From positions 1 through 42,089 of the forward strand of contig JARVGK010000027.1 of NCBI GenBank assembly GCA_029762535.1: a DNA stretch of 42,089 nt, in the 5' to 3' direction. Every line of letters begins with the position of its first letter. Positions within the stretch are counted from its first letter, which is position 1. Positions 2,054 through 33,495 of the stretch are shown one piece after another. The translations under genes and the position numbers were made by a program. The stretch comes from Thermoplasmatota archaeon. Its GTDB lineage: Archaea > Thermoplasmatota > Penumbrarchaeia > Penumbrarchaeales > Penumbrarchaeaceae. The notes under the pieces are model-generated. The model ran no database searches. It worked only from the letters and a program-made list of their open reading frames with translations, and was not told where the DNA came from.

Positions 2054-4267
2054 TCAATATTTTCCAAACTCCTTCTTTATAACGTGATATGAATCCTTCA
2101 ATCTTTCAGTGCAGGATGGTGCGTCCCAGTCCTCCCATTCGTAGAAAAGTCCCATACTTCCCTGTTGCAGGACCGAGGGATCGGACCCATTGTCCATATT
2201 GGATGAGGGGTCGATGAACAGATGCATCCTGCCCTCGAAGGATGTGAACGCCTCCAAGCCGATCCCGGGGATGAGAATGCCATTTTCACCGTCATGGTCG
2301 ATGACCTCCTTTGTGCTCGGGTCCTTGAAACCGATCAAGGCCCAAGGGATCCTCACGAAGAGGGTCCTTCCCTCATCAACGCTGAAGATGTCCCCGCTCA
2401 TCCTGGTGATGTCTCCCAAAGTCAATTCACCTGTATCGACCCATTCTGGATCCTGGACCGTGCCGTCGCTGAGCCTGTATCCATGGGATATCAGGCTCCT
2501 GATCGGCTGGTAATCGGCTCTGTATCCTATCCTCTCGTCCTCGGGAAGATAATGGCCGAAGTCACGATAGAATGGATCGTATCCGCCCAGGATAAGGACC
2601 CGGCCCGACCCAAAGGGATCGATCTCGATCATGAACTCAGGCCCCGTGAGGCCTTTATGTTCGAACGTTGTGTTCCTATTGTGTGAGGCATGCCCCGATA
2701 TCGTTTTCAAGGCAATGTAAGTGCCCATTCCCGAGTGCGCTCTGTCATCGAACGTATCCTCATATTCCAAGGCGATGTACAGGCCGCTCTCGTCGTGGGC
2801 TGCGCCCATCCAATTCAGCGATCCCTTTTCTATCCCATATCCGGAGAACACCTCCTTAAAGGAATGGTCAGAAGTAATGCCTTCAATAATGGCATTTTGA
2901 CCGGATGGTTCGAAGCTCAACATTCCGTAGGATTGCTCCGGTGTCTGCATGTCGAACCAGAAGGCGGACCTTTCCTCGTTCGTTCGTTCTCTCGTGTTCC
3001 AGGACAGCTTGAACCATTCGTCCTGCCAGGAGAAGAGTATACCTCCACAGAGCCCCTCATCGACTATGGACCTGAACATCCTCGCGTTGATCTCTCCCTG
3101 CTCACCCTCCGTGTTGCCCCCCTGGTCCATCCCGTGGACGCCTCTATGGCTCATACCGCGCGAGGAAGGGACTCCGAACTCGGCTATTAGCACCGGGGAT
3201 GAATGGGCCTGCTCGAGGTCCCTCAGGTAACCGGCGAAATTGTTCAATTCCCCGTCAACGTCCACGTAATTAGCATAGGCCGGGTCCAGATTCATGAACT
3301 CGGGATAATAAGGGTATACATGATAGGAGCTGAAAATGCCCGCGCCGAAGCGTTCGCGGGCTACGATATGGTCCGGATGGACCTGATATGCGTCTTCCTC
3401 GAAATAGGGCTCGCCGGGATGTCCTATGGGATCAAGCGACTGAGTGTTGACGAAGCTCACAGGCGTCATCCTAGAGTATCTCGAGACCTGATAATCTATC
3501 GTGAGATCCATGAGGGAGGCGAGCCAGATCTCGAAAGGCGAGGCTCCTACCGTTCTCACATAGCCCCCTTCCAGATCGGGCATGCCCTTGTATCTCTCAT
3601 CCGTCGCTCCGACGAGGAGAGGATCCCATTCCAGCCCCAGGATGATCCCCAACAAGTGAGCCGATACATCGTGTTCGTAACCCGGGGGACCGGCACCATG
3701 AACGATGTCCACCGCCATTGAGATCCTGGCCATACAGTGGTTCATGACGACATCGTCGAATATTTCGCTCGTGGGTGTGAGATAGGTTTCATCGAACCAT
3801 ATCCCCTGGAAGAGTAGGATGTCATATCCATCCGCTGAATTGATGTCATTTATCGCCCTGTATAGTTCCGGGTTGTGGGGATCGAACACCCTAATGCAGT
3901 TGGCGTTCATGTCCCGGATCTGGACCATCCATCTATTATACTGCTCGTATGTGATCGGGGACGTTGTCGGGAAATGACCGGGGCTGGTCCTTCCCATATT
4001 GACCCCCTTGATCAATACGTCGTTCCATTGACCGGACCCATAGACCTGGAACCGGTCATCCATTACGCGGGAGGAGATCTCGATCACATCGCCCCTTATG
4101 AACATGTCCCTCGCGGCGATCATATCCACATTTCCGGACCCCGATCCGTTGTTGTTAAAGTGGGAGAGCAGGATCATCGATGATGACAGCATCAAGGATA
4201 TTATGACGAAGGTCGCCGCCCGCTCCGTATTAAAGGGCATTGCCGGGAACCCCCATGCCTTGTGCAT
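2054..4267 (-). CDS. Secreted or membrane-anchored glycoside hydrolase-like TIM-barrel protein (clan GH-A / GH2-like)
   Basis: N-terminal hydrophobic segment; IKGVNMG, MNANCIRVF, ILGLEW, SYHVYPYYPEF, PVLIAEFGVPSSRG, FSWQDEWFK motifs. Confidence 0.65.
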   Translation of the reverse strand: MHKAWGFPAMPFNTERAATFVIISLMLSSSMILLSHFNNNGSGSGNVDMIAARDMFIRGDVIEISSRVMDDRFQVYGSGQWNDVLIKGVNMGRTSPGHFPTTSPITYEQYNRWMVQIRDMNANCIRVFDPHNPELYRAINDINSADGYDILLFQGIWFDETYLTPTSEIFDDVVMNHCMARISMAVDIVHGAGPPGYEHDVSAHLLGIILGLEWDPLLVGATDERYKGMPDLEGGYVRTVGASPFEIWLASLMDLTIDYQVSRYSRMTPVSFVNTQSLDPIGHPGEPYFEEDAYQVHPDHIVARERFGAGIFSSYHVYPYYPEFMNLDPAYANYVDVDGELNNFAGYLRDLEQAHSSPVLIAEFGVPSSRGMSHRGVHGMDQGGNTEGEQGEINARMFRSIVDEGLCGGILFSWQDEWFKLSWNTRERTNEERSAFWFDMQTPEQSYGMLSFEPSGQNAIIEGITSDHSFKEVFSGYGIEKGSLNWMGAAHDESGLYIALEYEDTFDDRAHSGMGTYIALKTISGHASHNRNTTFEHKGLTGPEFMIEIDPFGSGRVLILGGYDPFYRDFGHYLPEDERIGYRADYQPIRSLISHGYRLSDGTVQDPEWVDTGELTLGDITRMSGDIFSVDEGRTLFVRIPWALIGFKDPSTKEVIDHDGENGILIPGIGLEAFTSFEGRMHLFIDPSSNMDNGSDPSVLQQGSMGLFYEWEDWDAPSCTERLKDSYHVIKKEFGKY

Positions 4268-4816: not shown

Positions 4817-6295
4817 TCAAATGAAGACGGCCCTGCCCCTGTCCGTCAGGCCCAAGAGCCTCTCCCTGCCCTTCCACCTCTCAACGATATAATCGAAGGC
4901 GAGCAGTCTGGATATCCTCTTTCTCGCAGTGGGCCTGCTTATCTTGAGGTCTTCGGCCATGTTCGACAGGGATGTCTCCAGATATCTCCTCTCCCTTTCA
5001 TAAAGCAGCTTCAGGATGTCCATCAATTCCTCATCTATTCGGGCCCTGACCAGGGGTTCAAGGACCGAACATTCCTTCGATAACAAAGCGCATTCCCTGG
5101 CATCGATCGTGTCCGGGTCCAGGGTGACGATGGCTATGGAATCCTTGAGCACCATTGCCTCCTTGAGGGGGGATATCAGAGCCATAAGCCCCTTAAAGCC
5201 GATCGCCGATTGAATGAAGTCCAGCCTGTCTATGTGAAATACACCATGGTTCGGCTGCCGCTTGACCGTATCGATGATGGCCTCAGGATCCGCTCTTATC
5301 GATCCCTCTATCTGGGTCTGGGCCATCCAGAAATGTTTGATGTCCCCCTTGATGGCCTTTCGGAGGTCCTTCTCGGGCGTTCTCGAGATCAGGGTAGCGG
5401 CATATCCGGCCTTCAATGCGTCGTTCAGCGCATCCCTCCCCGTCTCCTGCGTTCTCTCGAGTACGAGATATACGTTCCCCTCATCAAGGCGGTATTTCAT
5501 CAGTTTTTTCAAGATATCTCCCTGTTCCTTCTTGATAGAGGTGATGTCGCGTATCAGGCATACCCGGGCCGTCTCGCTTTCGATCCCTGAGAGGGGATGG
5601 GACTGGATCGCCGCCCATATTGGATCCCCTCCACTTTTTAGAAGCCTCAGCTCCGCTGAGGGAACACCCTCTTGAACATCCCCCTCGAGAAGAGCCCTTA
5701 CCTTGAGATGATCGTTCGGATGGATGAGGTCCTCCAATCTCGAACCAACGATCCCTTCCCTGTCGCGGTCCAGCATCGAGCAAAGGACGCTGTTGACGTC
5801 CGTTATGGTATTATCGATCCGGCCGGGAACCTCCTCGAGATGCAGTATGCCCTCCGGAGAGTTCTCGAACAGGCTCCTGAACTTCAGGTCCGCATCGGAG
5901 GCCTTTTTCCTCAATTCGGATTCCAGCCCAACGATCCTCTCCCCGACGTTTATCCTGGCCCTGAGCTCCTGGGCGTCCACAGGTTTTTTGATGTAGTCGT
6001 CGACCCCTGATGAGAATCCCTTGATCATGTCGTCCTTTTTGCTCCTCGATGTTATCATGATAATGTAGGCATGCCTCCTGTCGGGATCGGCCCTAAGGCG
6101 CTCGCATACCTCTATCCCGTCCATACCCGGCATCTCCCAGTCGAGGAGCATTATCTCAGGGGGGTCCTCTCCTATGGCTATGGATAGGGCCTCAAGGCCG
6201 TCCTTTGCGGTAACGGTGTCGTAACCCCATCTCTTCAGGTGGGATCCCAGCAAGCGAAGCGTCAGGGGGTCGTCGTCAGCCGCGAGTACCTTCAT
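4817..6295 (-). CDS. Response regulator: REC + PAS + DUF835-like domain + C-terminal wHTH
   Basis: REC (ADDD, LDWEMP, DDYIKKP); PAS (FRSLFENSPEGI, DLIHPND, IRDIT); DUF835-like (GNVYLVLE, ISRTPE, IDRLDFI, TLDPDTI); HTH (LKISRPTARKRISRL). Confidence 0.8.
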   Translation of the reverse strand: MKVLAADDDPLTLRLLGSHLKRWGYDTVTAKDGLEALSIAIGEDPPEIMLLDWEMPGMDGIEVCERLRADPDRRHAYIIMITSRSKKDDMIKGFSSGVDDYIKKPVDAQELRARINVGERIVGLESELRKKASDADLKFRSLFENSPEGILHLEEVPGRIDNTITDVNSVLCSMLDRDREGIVGSRLEDLIHPNDHLKVRALLEGDVQEGVPSAELRLLKSGGDPIWAAIQSHPLSGIESETARVCLIRDITSIKKEQGDILKKLMKYRLDEGNVYLVLERTQETGRDALNDALKAGYAATLISRTPEKDLRKAIKGDIKHFWMAQTQIEGSIRADPEAIIDTVKRQPNHGVFHIDRLDFIQSAIGFKGLMALISPLKEAMVLKDSIAIVTLDPDTIDARECALLSKECSVLEPLVRARIDEELMDILKLLYERERRYLETSLSNMAEDLKISRPTARKRISRLLAFDYIVERWKGRERLLGLTDRGRAVFI

Positions 6296-6454
6296 GATAT
6301 GATCGAACGAATGAGGATATCTGGAATGATATATTTTTCCGCATCGTTATCGGGATCCAGTCTGAAAGCTCCGGATCGGATCAATAACATTTCGTTCATA
6401 CAATGAAAACCCGAAGGGTCGGATCACTCTGGCGGCGTTATTAATCAAATTGTG

Positions 6455-6751
6455 TCGGGAAGCTCAATTGAATGCCGTAACATCAGGGCTTCCCGGTCTT
6501 GGGAAAATCGAAATTGGACATTGCTACCATGTCGATTTTCCCGACTTTTTCATCCCTGAATAATGAGTTATCACCAAGGGATGAAAAAGATTATTTCAAC
6601 TATCTTGATCAGCTTGATCGGGAAGCTTAATTGAATGCCGTAACATCAGGGCTTCCCGGTCTTGGGAAAATCGAAATTGGACATTGCTACCATGTCGATT
6701 TTCCCGACTTTTTCATCCCTGAATAATGAGTTATCACCAAGGGATGAAAAA
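6455..6751. repeat. Direct repeat A: two 134-bp copies (6455-6588, 6618-6751), each made of three consecutive hairpins
   Basis: Copies differ at one position (C6465/T6628); stems CGGGAAGCT/GGCTTCCCG, GGGAAAATCGA/TCGATTTTCCC, TTTTTCATCCCT/AGGGATGAAAAA with ~20-nt loops. Confidence 0.97.
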
Positions 6752-6753
6752 TA

Positions 6754-7015
6754 GCCACCAGGGGTATCCTTTGGAACGAAGGTCGTTGACGCAGTATCGT
6801 TCGTTCCAAAGGTCGGGGAAATCATCAACAGATGATTTTCCAACGATCGAACTCGGAGGGTCGAATCGCTCTGGATAAATTGGATAAAGCTTTGATAGCT
6901 TGCCACCAGAGGGATCCTTTGGAACGAAGGTCGTTGACGCAGTATCGTTTGTTCCAAAGGTCGGGGAAATCATCAACAGATGATTTTCCAACGATCGAAG
7001 AATCCCTCTGGTGGC
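6754..7015. repeat. Direct repeat B: two copies (6754-6874, 6902-7015), each with two hairpins bracketed by tRNA-Thr 3'-end sequence
   Basis: Core 6766-6851 matches 6914-6999 with one mismatch; stems CCTTTGGAACGAA/TTCGTTCCAAAGG and GGGAAATCATC/GATGATTTTCC; copy 2 is closed by GCCACCAGAGGGAT/ATCCCTCTGGTGGC. Confidence 0.95.
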
Positions 7016-7038
7016 GGTTCTAATTAATAAATAATTGA

Positions 7039-7112
7039 AGCCACCAGAGGGATTCGAACCCCCGACCTGCTGATTACGAATCAGCCGCTCAACCAGGCTA
7101 AGCTATGGTGGC
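7039..7112 (-). tRNA. tRNA-Thr(CGT), no intron, CCA not encoded
   Basis: Reverse complement GCCACCATAGCTTAGCCTGGTTGAGCGGCTGATTCGTAATCAGCAGGTCGGGGGTTCGAATCCCTCTGGTGGC-T: acceptor stem GCCACCA/TGGTGGC, anticodon arm GCTGA-TTCGTAA-TCAGC, T loop TTCGAAT. Confidence 0.97.
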
Positions 7113-15120: not shown

Positions 15121-15252
15121 CCCTTGTTACATCACCATTGACCCGAACTTATCGTGGATAGGGAGTCTGGTAATTGTCGAGAAATGAGAAAATGTAATTA
15201 CCAGAACCTCCCATATACACTGATAGGATTCGGAAGATCCCAGGTGGTCAGC

Positions 15253-18200
15253 ATGAAAAGTGACGCAGGTACTAGGAGCATGGCATTATTGATGCTGCTT
15301 ATGATGATATCTCTGCCGTTGTTCGCGCTCGTGAACGTGACGGGGACGATATCATATGAGATGAACAAGCAGCTGACGGCCACGAACTACGAGGAGAAGC
15401 TTCCCGAGATCCGTGCCACGGGCACAGGCGAGGATGCCAAGGTGTTCGTCATCTACGAGGACTACACGACCTTCAACATGCCAAGCATCAAGTTCAAGCG
15501 CTCATCGGACGGAGGGGAAACATTTCCAGATACCTACGACTTCATGCAGTCGCCCAACGACGGGGACAAGCAGTTATGGCCCAGCATGGACAACGAGGGC
15601 GATACGATCGTCGTGGTCTATCTCGACAACAGGTGGAGGACGATCCCCCTCCTTACGGCCGAGATGCTGGTGATGGCCTCGATCTCGAGCAATGGCGGCG
15701 ATTCGTGGACGACCTATAAAGTGACCCCGGAGACGCTTTCCGACTACCCGAGCACTACCATGAGGCAGCTGCATGTCGATATCGACACGAATGGTAACAT
15801 ATTCGTCGTATGGTCGGAGAAGGGGAGGATACGGTTATCATATTCGACAAATAGCGGATCCACCTGGAGCATACCTCAGGATGTGAAGGAGAACGTGGTA
15901 CCCCCCGACGGACAACCTCTCTACGATCAGTTCATGCCGAGCGTTGCCTCGAACGGTGATTATGTGGTGGTCTGCTGGGAGGCAAACCCTGATTGGAAGA
16001 CCTACGTTTATCACAGCAGGGCGTCTGTCCAATCCGGCGGTTCACTCGCTTTCTCAACACCTCAAATACTGCCCGATCTTGGAAAATACCCTTATTCGAG
16101 TTCATACAGGCCAATGATCAGGGATGGACCGGGCAAGTACTTCCATGTCCTATGGTGGGACTTCATCACAAGCCAAACGGCCAATGTCGGAGGGGATCCA
16201 TGGACGCGCGACAGGGCCTCGGTCCTGTATTCCAGGAGCACTGACAACGGAGCGACCTTCTCTATTGGCGGGAAGAAGGGGGCCATCGTCAACTCCTCCA
16301 CTCCTGACGGTTGGCACTCCGCCGGCAACCTGGCCATCGTGCCGAACGGCAACGTCGTGGTGACATGGGTCGATTACACACAGGGCAAGCCTGCCGTTTA
16401 CGCATCCACTTCTGTTGACGGAGTCAACTGGTCACCTCAGGATCGGGTCACCAACTTCCAGGCTTCCACAACCGTTTTCTTCGAGGATCCCAGGATCGCA
16501 TGCGACGATTCCGGGAACGTTCACCTGGCATGGATACAGAGAAGCCAGGGGTCGGCCTCGCAGGGCGACATATACTATTCCCGGAGCGTGATCCCCAACG
16601 ACCCCCCTGCATCGGTCGAGAATCTTCAGGTCTATCTTGACAACAACAACCCCGAGAGCAAGGCCTTCGCCTCCTGGGAATTAAACAGAGAACCCGATTT
16701 CAAGGAATACAGGATATACCTCGGGACAGAGCCGGGATTCATCCTGGGGACTCCAATATACAACACTTCGGTCCAGGACTACCAGCAGCATGAGATGAAG
16801 GCCCTTGCGGCCAATACCAACTATTACCTCAAGATAATGGTCGTGGATTCCGGTGATCTCTCCACCCTCTCCCCCGAAGTGCATTTCAAGACCTTTCCCA
16901 TCAACGAGCCTCCCAGGTTCACAAGGGAGATCCCGACAATATACATGGATGAGGATTCATCCTTCGAGGAAGCGATGAATTTCACCAAGTGGAGGCAGGA
17001 GGGATGGATCTGGGACGACGATTACAACGGTCATGTCGGGCTGCAGTTCGAGATCACGGCCCTTAGCCCCACGCCAAACGTCACCGCCCTCATCCGGGAG
17101 TACGGACTCAACGTCACATACCAGGTCCTCGATCTCTATACCAACAAGCAGAACTGGTTCGGGACCGAGAGGTTCCTACTCAAGGTCATGGACTCGGGGA
17201 AGGACGGTTCCTTCGGAACACCTGACGACAGGTTCTCCATCGCCAATCTTACCGTCAGGGTGAACTCGACCAACGACGTTCCGACGTGGGTGAACTTCGA
17301 GGACCTATCCTCCGGCAGGACCATACCGCTACTATCCAACCAGACGAAGTTGGACCTGCGCGAGACCGATGTTACCGCCATCGAAGGCCAGCTTTATCGC
17401 TTCGCGTTGAGGGGAGATGATGTGGACGGGGATTTCCTCGAGTTCACATGCAGCGATCCCCGAGTGTTGGTCGAGCCCGACAGGCTCGATCCCAGGCTCA
17501 AATCCACTTTCAGGTTCACTCCCATGAACGAAGATGTTCCCGAGGTCACCCTTTTCCTGACAATGTTCGACCGCCCCCTGGCCCAGAGGGACGGTACGGA
17601 GGGCAAGAGGAACCTCACCATGATCATCCCCATAATGAACGTGAACGATGCTCCGTTCTTCATATCGATAGACGAAAAACCCTTCGTGCCCGGAACCGTT
17701 GTAAGGTTCGAGATGCTCGAGGAGAGCACACTGGAGTTCAACGTAACCGGCGACGATCCCGATACAGGGGACGAACTTCGCCTCCTGTCCGATCTGGAGG
17801 ACAGGGTGGTGATCACCAGAACGAACGCAAGCGAGTGGAGCTGGAGGGCGAGGATCGACTCGACCAATGACGATCCAGTCCTGGGATACATAGCCTTCCA
17901 CCTGATACTTCAGGACAAGCAGAGATCGGACCTCGTCATGGCCAGGATCAACATAACCGTGATAAACACCCCAGATCCACCCGAATGGATGAGGCCGGCC
18001 TACGATTACTTCTTCGTGTACGATGAGAAGGACCGATTCGAGTTCGGGGGCGATATCAAACCCGGAGGGGGGGTCATACGGGCCGAATGGGGCGAGACGG
18101 TCAGGTTCGAGGCATACGCCTTCGATTCTGACTACGATGTCCTGAACTACACCTGGACCTTCACCAACAAGATCAACACCTCTCTTGTTTACGTGAAGTA

Positions 18201-19479
18201 TGGTCCGATCGTGAACCTGGAGTTCTATCCCTCGGACGGGGACCTCACAAAGATCCGGAACGAGGACTTCACTGTCAACATAACCGTCTCTGACGGTTTG
18301 TTCCCCGCCATCTACAGGGAGTTCGACATCACGGTATGGCCGGACGACGACAATGACAATGACGGGATCCCGGACCGCAGGGAGAAGTTCTTCTTCGATC
18401 GGCTTGTGGCATCGGAGCAGTACAAGGATTTCGACCCGGTCAAGACCTGGAAGAAGTACGAAGGGGATCCGAATCAATATGATAAATGGAAGGAGGAGTA
18501 CAGGGGCTGGTATCACTACAAATCTTACGAACGCTTGACCCCCGAGGTCCGGAGCAACTGGCTTCTGCTCTTCAACAATTCAGCGGATATCGACAGGGAC
18601 GGCTACAGCAATTTCGAGGAGATCGGTATATGGATACCTCTAGATGACAGGGAGAAAAGGACGCCATACTCCTTGAACATGGACACCATGGACCCATTGA
18701 ACCCGGAGGTCAAGCCGGGTGGTGGTGGAAAATGGCCTCCTTTACCTCCAGATATACCGCCTGAAAAACCCCTGGTCCCTCCCTGGGTCCTATACGTAGG
18801 GGGCTCCATACTGCTGTTTTTGGTCCTCATAGGGACCGGCATATTCGTCATCCTGCGCTGGAACAAGAAGAAGGAGGAGGAGGAGGATATCGAGATCGAA
18901 CGCCGCATAAAGGAGACCGAGAAGAGGCAGGAACAGATCAACAAGCTCTACGGTGGAAAGTACAAGGCCGGAGATGCGATCGGACCGGACCAGTCCACCC
19001 TGAGCGATCTCAGGCTCGACCTCGGAGGCAGCGTCTATCACGAGGAGGGATCCAGCGGGATCGTGGACGAGTCCGGAAAGAAGAAGCAAAGGGACGGTCC
19101 GAATTGGGAATCCACCGTGAGCGGAGGCCCACTATTCGAGAAGACCGACGCCAAATTGGAGTTCGGGGAATCCCTGCAGCTCGAGGCCATAGGGATCGAG
19201 GCCGATATTGGTGAAATGGACCACTCCTCCATAGACGAGGAGGGGCTTTCGAGCTCCATGGACGAGATATTGAACGCGGCGGAGAAATATGATCCATCCA
19301 AGGTAACCTCCACCGACAGGGTTCAGATCGGGGCGATGACCATGGAGCAGAAGAGGCAGATGGAGAACTCCGATGGAGGACCCAGGCTGCCTCCGCCCGG
19401 ACAGGAGCCTCCGAAGGAAGGACCTGCCACCGGCCCCCCGCCCCCTCCGAGACCAACCCCCCCGAAAAAGGAAGAATGA
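15253..19479 (+). CDS. Large cell-surface protein: Asp-box (BNR/sialidase-like) beta-propeller, FN3, cadherin/Ig-like repeats, Ca-binding DxDxDG motifs, C-terminal TM and acidic/Pro-rich cytoplasmic tail
   Basis: Signal peptide; Asp-boxes RSSDGGETF, ISSNGGDSW, YSTNSGSTW, RSTDNGATF, TSVDGVNW; NEPP/NDVP/NDAP linkers; DNDNDGIPD, DIDRDGYSN; TM VLYVGGSILLFLVLIGTGIFVIL. Confidence 0.8.
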   Translation: MKSDAGTRSMALLMLLMMISLPLFALVNVTGTISYEMNKQLTATNYEEKLPEIRATGTGEDAKVFVIYEDYTTFNMPSIKFKRSSDGGETFPDTYDFMQSPNDGDKQLWPSMDNEGDTIVVVYLDNRWRTIPLLTAEMLVMASISSNGGDSWTTYKVTPETLSDYPSTTMRQLHVDIDTNGNIFVVWSEKGRIRLSYSTNSGSTWSIPQDVKENVVPPDGQPLYDQFMPSVASNGDYVVVCWEANPDWKTYVYHSRASVQSGGSLAFSTPQILPDLGKYPYSSSYRPMIRDGPGKYFHVLWWDFITSQTANVGGDPWTRDRASVLYSRSTDNGATFSIGGKKGAIVNSSTPDGWHSAGNLAIVPNGNVVVTWVDYTQGKPAVYASTSVDGVNWSPQDRVTNFQASTTVFFEDPRIACDDSGNVHLAWIQRSQGSASQGDIYYSRSVIPNDPPASVENLQVYLDNNNPESKAFASWELNREPDFKEYRIYLGTEPGFILGTPIYNTSVQDYQQHEMKALAANTNYYLKIMVVDSGDLSTLSPEVHFKTFPINEPPRFTREIPTIYMDEDSSFEEAMNFTKWRQEGWIWDDDYNGHVGLQFEITALSPTPNVTALIREYGLNVTYQVLDLYTNKQNWFGTERFLLKVMDSGKDGSFGTPDDRFSIANLTVRVNSTNDVPTWVNFEDLSSGRTIPLLSNQTKLDLRETDVTAIEGQLYRFALRGDDVDGDFLEFTCSDPRVLVEPDRLDPRLKSTFRFTPMNEDVPEVTLFLTMFDRPLAQRDGTEGKRNLTMIIPIMNVNDAPFFISIDEKPFVPGTVVRFEMLEESTLEFNVTGDDPDTGDELRLLSDLEDRVVITRTNASEWSWRARIDSTNDDPVLGYIAFHLILQDKQRSDLVMARINITVINTPDPPEWMRPAYDYFFVYDEKDRFEFGGDIKPGGGVIRAEWGETVRFEAYAFDSDYDVLNYTWTFTNKINTSLVYVKYGPIVNLEFYPSDGDLTKIRNEDFTVNITVSDGLFPAIYREFDITVWPDDDNDNDGIPDRREKFFFDRLVASEQYKDFDPVKTWKKYEGDPNQYDKWKEEYRGWYHYKSYERLTPEVRSNWLLLFNNSADIDRDGYSNFEEIGIWIPLDDREKRTPYSLNMDTMDPLNPEVKPGGGGKWPPLPPDIPPEKPLVPPWVLYVGGSILLFLVLIGTGIFVILRWNKKKEEEEDIEIERRIKETEKRQEQINKLYGGKYKAGDAIGPDQSTLSDLRLDLGGSVYHEEGSSGIVDESGKKKQRDGPNWESTVSGGPLFEKTDAKLEFGESLQLEAIGIEADIGEMDHSSIDEEGLSSSMDEILNAAEKYDPSKVTSTDRVQIGAMTMEQKRQMENSDGGPRLPPPGQEPPKEGPATGPPPPPRPTPPKKEE

Positions 19480-31802: not shown

Positions 31803-31870
31803 TGCGATTGAACGGATCCATCATATGCAACAACAATATAACATATGCATTCTATATATTTATGCTCATA

Positions 31871-31905
31871 TAATATAATATAATATAATATAATATAATA
31901 TAATA
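31871..31905. repeat. (TAATA)7 microsatellite abutting the IS110 end
   Basis: Seven perfect TAATA units read directly. Confidence 0.95.
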
Positions 31906-31938
31906 TATATTTGGTATGAAGATAGGCGTGTGGACTGG

Positions 31939-33177
31939 TCAAGTGGCCACCGGTAAAGGGGTCAATGATACCTCAAACCCAAGGGCTTTCAACCGGTTCA
32001 CCGCGTTCTTTTTTGAATTTTCTTTGTGGAGCCTTTCCAGATAATCAGGACCCAGGTCTTTATATGGCTCACCGTTCTGGATCACATGAAAGGCAATACA
32101 GAGAATCTTATGGGCTATCGCTGTGATGGCTCTTTTCTGGCCACGACGATGAGCAAGCCTTCGGTATTTCTCTGACAGATAGTTACCTTTGGTCTTGGAT
32201 GCGGCCCACGCAGCCTCGGTCAAAGTCACCCTTAACCAACAATCGCCTTTCCTGGTCTTGCCGCTCATCCTTTTCCCGGCACTCTCTTTGTTACCTGGAC
32301 ACACACCAGCCCATGAAGCAAGTCTCTGAGGTGTCTGAAAAACTGACATATCGTCCCCAATCTCGGCAATGATCGATGCTGCACAGTGCTTATTTACACC
32401 AGGGATCGTCATCAGAAGTTCGTATACCTCTCGATAAGGTTCTAATTTCTCATCGATCCTTCTTTCAAGGTCAGCAATCCTTTCGCCGAGGTAATTCAGA
32501 TGATCGAATATCTCAGCCATCATGAATCGATGATGATCGGTGACATGCCCTCTCAACGCCTTGATCAGATCAGGTATCTTGGATCGAAGCCTACGTCTAG
32601 CCATGTCGGCGATCTCTTCAGGGGACGAATCACCTTTTATGAGAGCTTGAATCATATCGGTACCTGATATCGAGAACGTTTTACTCAGAACGGACGAGAT
32701 CTTTATGTTTGCGTCTTCGAGTATTTTTTGGAGTCTGTTCTTTTCAGCCGTTACGTTCTGGATGAGCTTCGTTCGGTACCGGACCAGATCCCTGAGGTCT
32801 CTGATGTCCCTTGGCGGTATGAAGCTATTTCTCAGGAGACCGTGCCTGAGCAATGTCGCGATCCACTGGCTGTCGTTGAGGTCAGTCTTTCTTCCGGGGA
32901 CGTTCTTGATCAACCTTGCGTTTACGACCATGACGATCATGGAATCCTCAAGGATGTTGAAGACAGGCTTCCAGTAAGTGCTAGTGCTTTCCATGGCTAC
33001 ATGGGAGCAATCGTTATCCAGAAGCCAAAGTTTCATCTTGAGTAGGTCCTCGGTCATAGTCGAGAAGCTCTTCTTGGTCTCTGTCACCTTTCCGTCGAGG
33101 CCTTCGATGAGCAGGCAGGCCACGATAATCGACTTATGTATGTCTAATCCACAACATCTTTTTAAAATCGGTTGCAT
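31939..33177 (-). CDS. IS110-family transposase (DEDD RuvC-like + Tnp20 domain)
   Basis: GLDIHK, AMESTSTYWKPV, RKTDLNDS, LMTIPGV..IIAEIGD, LASWAGVCPGNKESAGK (catalytic Ser), AIAHKIL. Confidence 0.97.
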   Translation of the reverse strand: MQPILKRCCGLDIHKSIIVACLLIEGLDGKVTETKKSFSTMTEDLLKMKLWLLDNDCSHVAMESTSTYWKPVFNILEDSMIVMVVNARLIKNVPGRKTDLNDSQWIATLLRHGLLRNSFIPPRDIRDLRDLVRYRTKLIQNVTAEKNRLQKILEDANIKISSVLSKTFSISGTDMIQALIKGDSSPEEIADMARRRLRSKIPDLIKALRGHVTDHHRFMMAEIFDHLNYLGERIADLERRIDEKLEPYREVYELLMTIPGVNKHCAASIIAEIGDDMSVFQTPQRLASWAGVCPGNKESAGKRMSGKTRKGDCWLRVTLTEAAWAASKTKGNYLSEKYRRLAHRRGQKRAITAIAHKILCIAFHVIQNGEPYKDLGPDYLERLHKENSKKNAVNRLKALGFEVSLTPLPVAT

Positions 33178-33188
33178 ATGTTGTCTCC

Positions 33189-33341
33189 GATGGCAAAGGA
33201 GGTAGTGTAGAGTAAGAAAATTTGGTATACGTGCTTCCCGAAGACGGGAGCGACACTATGTTGTTCTTTGAAGCTACCAGGTCAGTTTTTTTTTCGGGGT
33301 CGTAGCCTCCGAAAATAGATCGACCTTCATCCTTTGCCATC
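33189..33341 (-). ncRNA. Candidate IS110 bridge RNA in the transposase 5' non-coding end
   Basis: 12-bp closing stem GATGGCAAAGGA/TCCTTTGCCATC enclosing two stem/internal-loop/hairpin domains; loop sequences partly match the reconstructed target and donor junctions. Confidence 0.6.
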
Positions 33342-33495
33342 ACCACTTGAATGTAGGTCTTCCTAAAAATCCACACGCCCATCTTCATGCTATGTTGTGA
33401 GCCTTGGGCTCATGAGGGTTTATTTTAAATAAGTTTTATATATTTCTTTAGACATCATCTATCAAGATGAGAGAAGAAAAAGGAAGGTGACAAGA

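Follow-up and report, generated by a model that had tools for sequence, protein, structure and literature searches.

Array of hairpins behind tRNA-Thr(CGT)

The window, by which we mean the whole stretch of 42,089 nucleotides analysed here, belongs to a 2.96-Mb archaeal metagenome-assembled genome (MAG) that is 93% complete and is taken to belong to the EX4484-6 lineage, a label of one of the Thermoplasmatota MAGs in which the closest relatives of one of its proteins occur. The array under study is flanked by a REC-PAS-DUF835 gene (4817–6295, minus strand) and by a tRNA-Thr(CGT) gene without encoded CCA (7039–7112, minus strand), the latter representing its anchor and target site, and a GAF-domain gene lies beyond the tRNA. 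No recombinase gene was found in or adjoining the array, and an Rfam search of the array gave no match besides the tRNA. Two large open reading frames of the window, at 2054–4267 (minus strand, 737 aa) and 15154–19479 (plus strand, 1441 aa), are without any Pfam match.

Read outward from the tRNA gene, the array begins with a minus-strand segment (7000–7038) composed of an AT-rich trailer (7016–7038) and an exact 16-bp inverted copy of the tRNA 3′ end (7000–7015), which pairs with the tRNA end itself to form an eleventh hairpin (7000–7055). Next come the proximal module B (6916–6997, plus strand), a twin-hairpin core antisense to the tRNA with one long-loop hairpin (6916–6960) and one short GAAAT-type hairpin (6963–6990), and a direct copy, or tRNA core, of tRNA positions 59–72 (6902–6915, minus strand; 14/14). 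A plus-strand segment (6850–6901) with an inverted T-arm/acceptor copy (6853–6874; 19/22) and a unique 27-bp AT-rich spacer leads to the distal module B (6768–6849, plus strand; hairpins at 6768–6812 and 6815–6842) and to a diverged direct copy of positions 59–72 (6754–6767, minus strand; 12/14). Two copies of module A follow, the proximal one (6618–6751) with three long-loop hairpins at 6709–6751, 6664–6705 and 6618–6659 and the distal one (6455–6588) with hairpins at 6545–6589, 6501–6542 and 6455–6496; the unique 29-bp linker between them (6589–6617) is represented by a junction unitig. The array closes with an AT-rich trailer, a diverged inverted tRNA copy (6411–6436; 19/26) and a small terminal hairpin (6408–6425), and this plus-strand segment (6408–6454), compared with C21 and L004, is probably the stump of one more unit.

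The initial annotation had reported ten hairpins and five tRNA fragments in two duplicated modules. All ten hairpins were recovered, the fragments agreed exactly (19/26, 19/22 and 16/16 inverted; 12/14 and 14/14 direct), and so did the periods of 163 bp (133/134 identical, 134-bp duplicate) and 148 bp (95/98, 98-bp duplicate). The hairpins do not fill almost the entire region as had been described, but cover 402 of 625 bp (64%); the modules are duplicated but not head-to-tail, since unique linkers of 29 bp and 50 bp stand between the copies; and two of the ten hairpins (6815–6842 and 6963–6990) depart from the form of ~45 bp with ~20-nt loops, being 28 bp long with 4-nt loops.

In the likely source run, the repeat unitigs had a depth of ~29x versus ~14x in the unique flanks, and unitigs spanning each of the A-A, A-B and B-B junctions were present; the doubled depth together with the presence of every junction thus indicates that the duplications are real. 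We give virtually no credence to an assembly artefact, which the short-read origin of the MAG and the N gaps in several of its arrays might suggest, against the doubled depth and unique junctions, the point differences between copies and the homologs in more than 20 independent genomes. In a sister strain from another study (flanks ~94% identical), a contig joins 6405 to 6848 across two inverted tRNA copies in three runs (X2–X4; a 442-bp joint with its breakpoint at the 6850–6901 segment), and in one run (X3) 6590 is joined to 6902 (a 311-bp joint with its breakpoint at the proximal direct copy). Since these joints, seen as single junctions and not as one phased array order, fall at tRNA-derived copies, module content or order differs between the strains.

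A family of gene-less cassettes at tRNA genes

The array is not specific to tRNA-Thr but one example of a genome-wide family of gene-less cassettes, ~90–165 bp in size, with the tRNA 3′ end as probable attachment site. Downstream direct copies of their own 3′ end were present at at least 21 of the 43 tRNA genes of this genome. Kin of module A (87% and 73%) follow each of the two remaining tRNA-Thr genes, and a portion of module B lies behind a tRNA-Val gene (contig C34) in the opposite orientation. Module A, found only behind tRNA-Thr genes (6/6 matches to its junction motif in the taxonomic family), sits between the tRNA end and the usual trailer at some Thr loci but not at all of them; comparison of the tRNA-Thr locus across relatives, as the initial annotation had advised, revealed modules that vary in content or order between strains.

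In the commonest unit, read in tRNA sense, a trailer, an inverted T-arm copy, a small hairpin, a long-loop hairpin, a short GAAAAT hairpin and a direct tRNA copy succeed one another, and the inverted and direct tRNA copies close a four-way junction. Perfect stems of at least 10 bp with 17–27-nt loops were enriched ~31-fold near tRNAs (48 in 66 kb versus 67 in 2.9 Mb elsewhere), with loop lengths of 19–25 nt in 47 of the 48 near-tRNA stems. The direct copies (n = 112; 121 tRNA loci) start at position 55 in 41 cases and at 59–60 in 50, and 59 of them end at 73–76. In 49 of 51 cases the inverted T-arm has the same base at position 57 as its host, and at positions 63–65 it agrees with the host tRNA at 1.6 of 3 positions versus 1.1 of 3 for other tRNAs. 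End hairpins overlap tRNA positions 60–62 and 69–75, and many units have a TC dinucleotide at each of their two junctions. Most tRNA cores match their host, and foreign ones occupy some internal array positions.

Matches to the covariance model R1 were obtained in 22 of 23 genomes of the host's taxonomic family and in both sister-family genomes; further out, they were limited to 1 of 11 other class members and to one weak match among 128 other phylum genomes sampled. In a set of 141 phylum genomes, R1 matches were confined to the order apart from a single weak one. The scaffold is common to many unrelated tRNA genes and to all 7 genera of the taxonomic family. A readable tRNA was present at 27 of the 32 model-hit loci inspected, and there the unit stood directly behind the tRNA and ended in its own 3′ end.

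Arrays also occur upstream of nine tRNA genes (contigs C5, C14, C15, C21, C36 with three loci, C47 and C69; for example L064:350–930 and L056:1–460). These upstream units, a mirror image of the downstream arrays, are 160–200 bp long and start with the first 25–44 nt of the tRNA, and several are preceded by a hairpin with a TATA-like box. On contig C36 (L032:3000–3230), a complete second copy of tRNA-Thr(GGT) lies upstream of the gene, with hairpin inserts at ~29/30 and 58/59; the insert inside the T-loop of this pseudo-tRNA is a module B homolog and is without duplication. Tail-to-tail tRNA genes with one common array were seen at L094 (G014) and L108 (G027), and the former pair, both tRNA-Gly(TCC), may be an assembly effect of inverted repeats. 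Arrays without a called tRNA nearby, at C3:1–500 (Leu cores), C7:38490–38950 (Pro/Val) and C102:360–810 (Trp), go with a contig end, an N gap or displacement by an integrated element.

Covariation in the modelled unit was strong, with 95% of cells paired and both-side changes in 29 of 30 pairs (0/500 shuffles), in an alignment fitted to the model and including kin genomes that are not independent; an unfitted set of eight sequences was 94% paired with 7 covarying pairs. RNAalifold on a plain MAFFT alignment returned the closing stem only, because of misalignment. Non-Watson–Crick stem cells on the modelled strand were G-T in 45 cases versus A-C in 15, under a model that favours G-U. Reversed twin-hairpin cores, their ends mostly matched to the host, were found at eight Gly, Glu, Leu, Ser and Trp loci, and the same position reads A-C in tRNA sense and G-T in antisense in every one of 11 such cores. 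Module B of the window is this twin-hairpin core in reverse orientation; its hairpins fold better on the plus strand, antisense to the tRNA, and neither strand is clearly favoured for the module A hairpins. Wobbles follow the strand of the module and not that of the tRNA, so selection acts on one strand that is set by the module and not by the tRNA promoter. Folding of the array region as a whole gave z = −14.5 (plus strand as DNA) and z = −10.2 (minus strand as RNA), both values being inflated by the duplication.

The motif TTGACG occurs on the wobble strand in 11 of 53 loops, against 0.24 expected. This bears on the proposal of a guide-like array, which found no support: no meaningful match to the loops turned up in the genome or in viral contigs (one 19-mer of chance size, in a phage portal ORF), the loops carry a fixed hexamer instead of unique spacers, and the strand of the twin-hairpin core flips relative to the tRNA. 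Among the matches listed, comparison of the genome's CRISPR spacers with the tRNA arrays likewise yielded short chance matches only. The statement that the array matches neither CRISPR nor attC stands: a constant repeat with unique spacers is not seen, as the stems differ and the loops are duplicated, share a motif and have no credible target; on inspection no R/L-box sites bound the units, whose boundaries are tRNA copies. The strand bias and a loop motif without targets favour a structure-specific substrate over a guide array, either single-stranded DNA or an independently transcribed RNA.

Signs of movement were found in several arrays. Val(GAC) and Val(TAC) share a 91-bp body with 89/91 identities, the direct cores match each host exactly, and the inner inverted copy of the shared body fits Val(TAC) at 14/16 versus Val(GAC) at 12/16. 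The apparently displaced array on contig C102 has a tRNA-Trp core starting at 59, and tRNA-Trp itself is followed by a tyrosine integrase, on a contig linkage that is inferred. In the Met array on contig C29 (L298:1050–4380), a 2.6-kb block between tRNA-core copies holds a heavy-metal (copper-type) P-type ATPase and a His-rich 90-aa peptide, and a HicB antitoxin gene lies just past the far end of the array. Most cassettes are empty and probably selfish, with some enclosing genes. One of the origins considered in the initial annotation, that small palindromic units were inserted again and again at a tRNA att site, is supported by units that are genome-wide, order-wide, strain-polymorphic and common to different tRNA genes.

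Known systems and candidate enzymes

The nearest likeness in layout is found in the tRNA-linked repeats (TLRs) of E. coli, reportedly treated by Rudd in 1999. These number 1–5 structured non-coding units per locus behind many tRNA/rRNA genes, with 18–19 bp equal to the upstream gene's 3′ end; those behind 5S genes are transcribed, processed and bound by Hfq and CsrA, and the function of all but the rRNA-operon members is unknown (PMC8144298). Compared by description, the two share units ending in the upstream tRNA 3′ end (14–19 bp here, 18–19 in TLRs) and the occurrence of 1–5 tandem units at several loci. The cassettes differ from TLRs in their archaeal order, their two start points and the inverted host-matched T-arm copy that closes a four-way junction; they also lie in both orientations, have upstream counterparts on the tRNA 5′ part, are strain-polymorphic and sometimes enclose genes.

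Which tRNA location is which for integrases is said to have been set out by Williams in 2002. Integrases use three preferred locations in tRNA genes (PMC8371274), and the T-loop and 3′-end starts of the cassettes resemble such locations. Arrays of att sites of tyrosine integrases in archaea (PMC8371274) share with the cassettes the duplication of the tRNA 3′ end from the T-loop on, the intact tRNA and tandem stacking as in non-autonomous elements. Unlike integrase elements, the units here are ~100–165 bp long and gene-less, with no integrase between attL and attR; a single scaffold is used at many tRNA species, where an integrase is normally tied to one att site; and the cassettes carry inverted att-like copies and dense covarying hairpins. 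CTX-phi has a folded attP. With it and with integrons, of which archaeal examples exist (PMC9668308), the cassettes have in common strand-specific single-strand folding, a conserved structure with loose sequence, reshuffled arrays and occasional gene or toxin–antitoxin cargo, but the window units show no attC R-box pattern and the anchor is a tRNA gene instead of attI or dif. An integron proper was rejected: the genome's 266-aa integrase, aligned and inspected, is without the IntI patch III insertion, and a relative in L141 scored below the TIGR02249 cut-off and was matched in two stretches.

Casposons make a 14–15-bp target duplication at the tRNA 3′ end, with T-loop recognition and tandem insertion (PMC5137440, PMC4779613). 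The cassettes resemble them in the 14–15-bp duplication at the tRNA 3′ end, the T-loop recognition and the tandem insertion, but the duplication in A. boonei overlaps the tRNA by 5 bp only, whereas that of the cassettes is wholly within the tRNA; neither a Cas1-solo casposase with PolB nor terminal inverted repeats were found, and a casposon was rejected. A tRNA intron or split tRNA of the archaeal kind was dismissed by hand inspection, which showed no canonical bulge-helix-bulge at the insert junctions of the contig C36 pseudo-tRNA, and a non-autonomous IS110/IS1111 element was dismissed as the units have no ends or bridge RNA in common with the resident IS110.

No enzyme tied to the arrays was found among the candidates in this genome and its relatives. 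This genome (93% complete) yielded no casposase, no RVT_1 reverse transcriptase and no Y1 transposase, and its tyrosine recombinases number only two; in the taxonomic family, 8 of 23 genomes, mostly incomplete ones, gave no PF00589 match. Small tyrosine recombinases abut arrays in the relatives G004, G005 and G009, which is at most suggestive of a cassette enzyme, and the ends compared gave no common end-piece. A family of ~240-aa tyrosine recombinases (L271:2728–3456, L281:4162–4881, L272, L273 and L274) has little beyond the catalytic domain; it stands twice right behind a tRNA hairpin array and was not found in this genome. XerA/IntI-like integrases of 266–270 aa without the IntI insertion (L036, L141, L280, L117, L120 and L125) have a conserved attC-like inverted repeat upstream and are possibly an atypical integron type; one of them abuts a truncated unit in G005, with no end-piece found in common with the arrays.

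A short serine recombinase on contig C58 (L110:1117–1980, minus strand; 286 aa) consists of resolvase and recombinase domains only and is single-copy. It is fixed behind truD and tRNA-Cys in ten genomes of the taxonomic family; ~440 related stretches exist in GTDB genomes, of which the best 80 are nearly all from Thermoplasmatota, and 70 of these best 80 loci are without tRNA-Cys within 3 kb. The tRNA link is confined to this taxonomic family. In G024, arrays and tRNA-Cys are present and the recombinase is absent; in four genomes without it, tRNA-Cys is also unassembled. We regard it as a weak candidate for the cassette enzyme.

An intact, single-copy IS110-family recombinase (31939–33177, minus strand; 412 aa) lies in the window and is 79% identical to one in G015; the ~270 bp of non-coding DNA upstream of it may hold its bridge RNA, and an ATATT-type microsatellite (31868–31907) comes after the gene. 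It was discarded as the source, having no hairpin or tRNA link and no similarity of its flanks (31939–33450) to the units, and IS110 matches occur in only 8 of 23 genomes of the taxonomic family. The only Cas1 of the genome is a long Cas4-Cas1-type ORF (555 aa; L035:820–3846, contig C5) beside a Cas2-like ORF and a CRISPR array of ~51 spacers, and Cas1 was found in 4 of 23 relatives. No free circular cassette was seen; scans of viral contigs with four scaffold patterns and one loop gave 0 matches, and metagenome scans gave 0 and then 13 chance matches without tRNA.

Explanations for the cassettes

The cassettes have their boundaries at tRNA ends, turn over, have spread between tRNA genes, lie in two orientations and fold strand-specifically. 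The explanation that we favour, at little better than even confidence, is that the array was stacked up from non-autonomous, gene-less cassettes, which a trans-acting enzyme recombines in folded single-stranded form at the tRNA T-loop/3′ end. A cassette would leave as a small circle or single strand and fold so that pairing of its inverted tRNA copy with the direct one restores a duplex like that of a T-arm. A recombinase whose gene lies elsewhere, most likely a tyrosine recombinase from the host or from integrative elements passing through, would then join it into the T-loop/3′ end (boundaries at 55 or 59–60, and at 73–74) and leave the tRNA intact. Host-specific ends would come from a crossover at the core edge and subsequent copying or conversion from the adjacent gene, and the whole would amount to a tRNA-anchored, integron- or CTX-like cassette platform. 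The weak point of this recombination is the host-matched core: simple att recombination would bring along the donor core, and because the majority of cores fit the host instead, the model needs a further conversion step. That nearly all genomes of the order have the units might also point to a host function, which would count against mobile cassettes.

The core is better explained by base-pair-guided insertion with target duplication, overall unlikely in our judgement, in which a folded DNA or RNA cassette would base-pair with the tRNA gene through its anti-tRNA arm and its end hairpins, and staggered nicks at ~59/60 and 73/74 would lead to copying of the 14-bp core from each host by bridge-RNA-, HUH- or casposase-like chemistry. 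Host-specific cores follow directly, and the fit of the inverted T-arm to host position 57 (49/51) and 63–65, the end hairpins overlapping tRNA 60–62 and 69–75, and TC at both junctions of many units are in keeping with it, as is the casposon precedent of 14–15-bp duplications at tRNA ends with tandem arrays (PMC5137440, PMC4779613). The genome, however, revealed no casposase or Y1 transposase, the units are without terminal inverted repeats, the single IS110 has no link to hairpins or tRNAs and is found in 8/23 genomes only, and the module B insert of the contig C36 pseudo-tRNA lacks a duplication. The cassettes might then be the smallest representatives of a self-targeting mobile system not yet described, with an anti-tRNA arm on a folded single strand, reprogrammed for each tRNA gene, guiding insertion by base pairing and the host tRNA end duplicated like a CRISPR repeat, a proposal to which we attach a similarly low probability. 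It is fairly improbable that the units are functional structured RNAs, guide arrays included, made by read-through transcription from the tRNA promoter and cut free by the enzymes of tRNA processing. Strong covariation, order-wide presence, unit ends that are always a tRNA 3′ end, upstream units beginning with a TATA-like sequence and the tRNA 5′ part, a terminator-like hairpin closing the array (chance level 0.8) and the TLRs transcribed and processed behind 5S genes (PMC8144298) all speak for it. Against this, the folding strand of the twin-hairpin core is antisense to the tRNA in the window and in 11/11 reversed units, which would leave a tRNA transcript with the mismatched form; strains differ in content, as do paralogous tRNAs; and the loops match no genome or virus target and have a fixed hexamer in common.

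Decayed att scars of larger integrative elements, multiplied through unequal crossing-over and turned into palindromes through template switching, with no dedicated mobility, would fit the evident local tandem duplication and the integrase elements hosted by tRNA-Thr, -Trp, -Ser and -Lys genes of relatives. Such passive by-products are nevertheless decidedly improbable given one scaffold at many unrelated tRNAs in all 7 genera, loop lengths sharply limited to 19–25 nt, strand-biased wobble, a conserved loop motif and the failure to find an end-piece in common with integrase elements. We think still less of retro-copying, in which a reverse transcriptase would copy the tRNA 3′ end up to methylated A58 and switch to a cassette RNA, the cDNA being inserted at the tRNA gene. 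Starts at 59–60 in 50/112 copies, which we take to be the known stop point at m1A58, and 12 copies carrying CCA where the gene is without it point in that direction, but no RVT_1 domain was found in the genome (93% complete), 41 copies start at 55, and 58 of 70 copies of CCA-less genes are also without CCA, which is mostly part of the next unit's first stem.

A literature search, mostly outside subscription journals, found no description of this cassette family, which is apparently an undescribed variant of tRNA-linked repeat or att-cassette arrays. The tRNA-linked repeats of E. coli have been an oddity without explanation since 1978; this archaeal order, in which dozens of diverged and covarying examples per family combine sharply defined boundaries and two orientations with polymorphism between strains and signs of inter-tRNA movement, makes the origin of such repeats testable. 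If the units are RNAs, they would constitute a large unannotated non-coding RNA family with no entry in Rfam 15; if a single trans-acting enzyme places short folded cassettes at many tRNA genes and leaves these undamaged, genes could be captured by a new route, which might also serve as a tool for safe-harbour integration.
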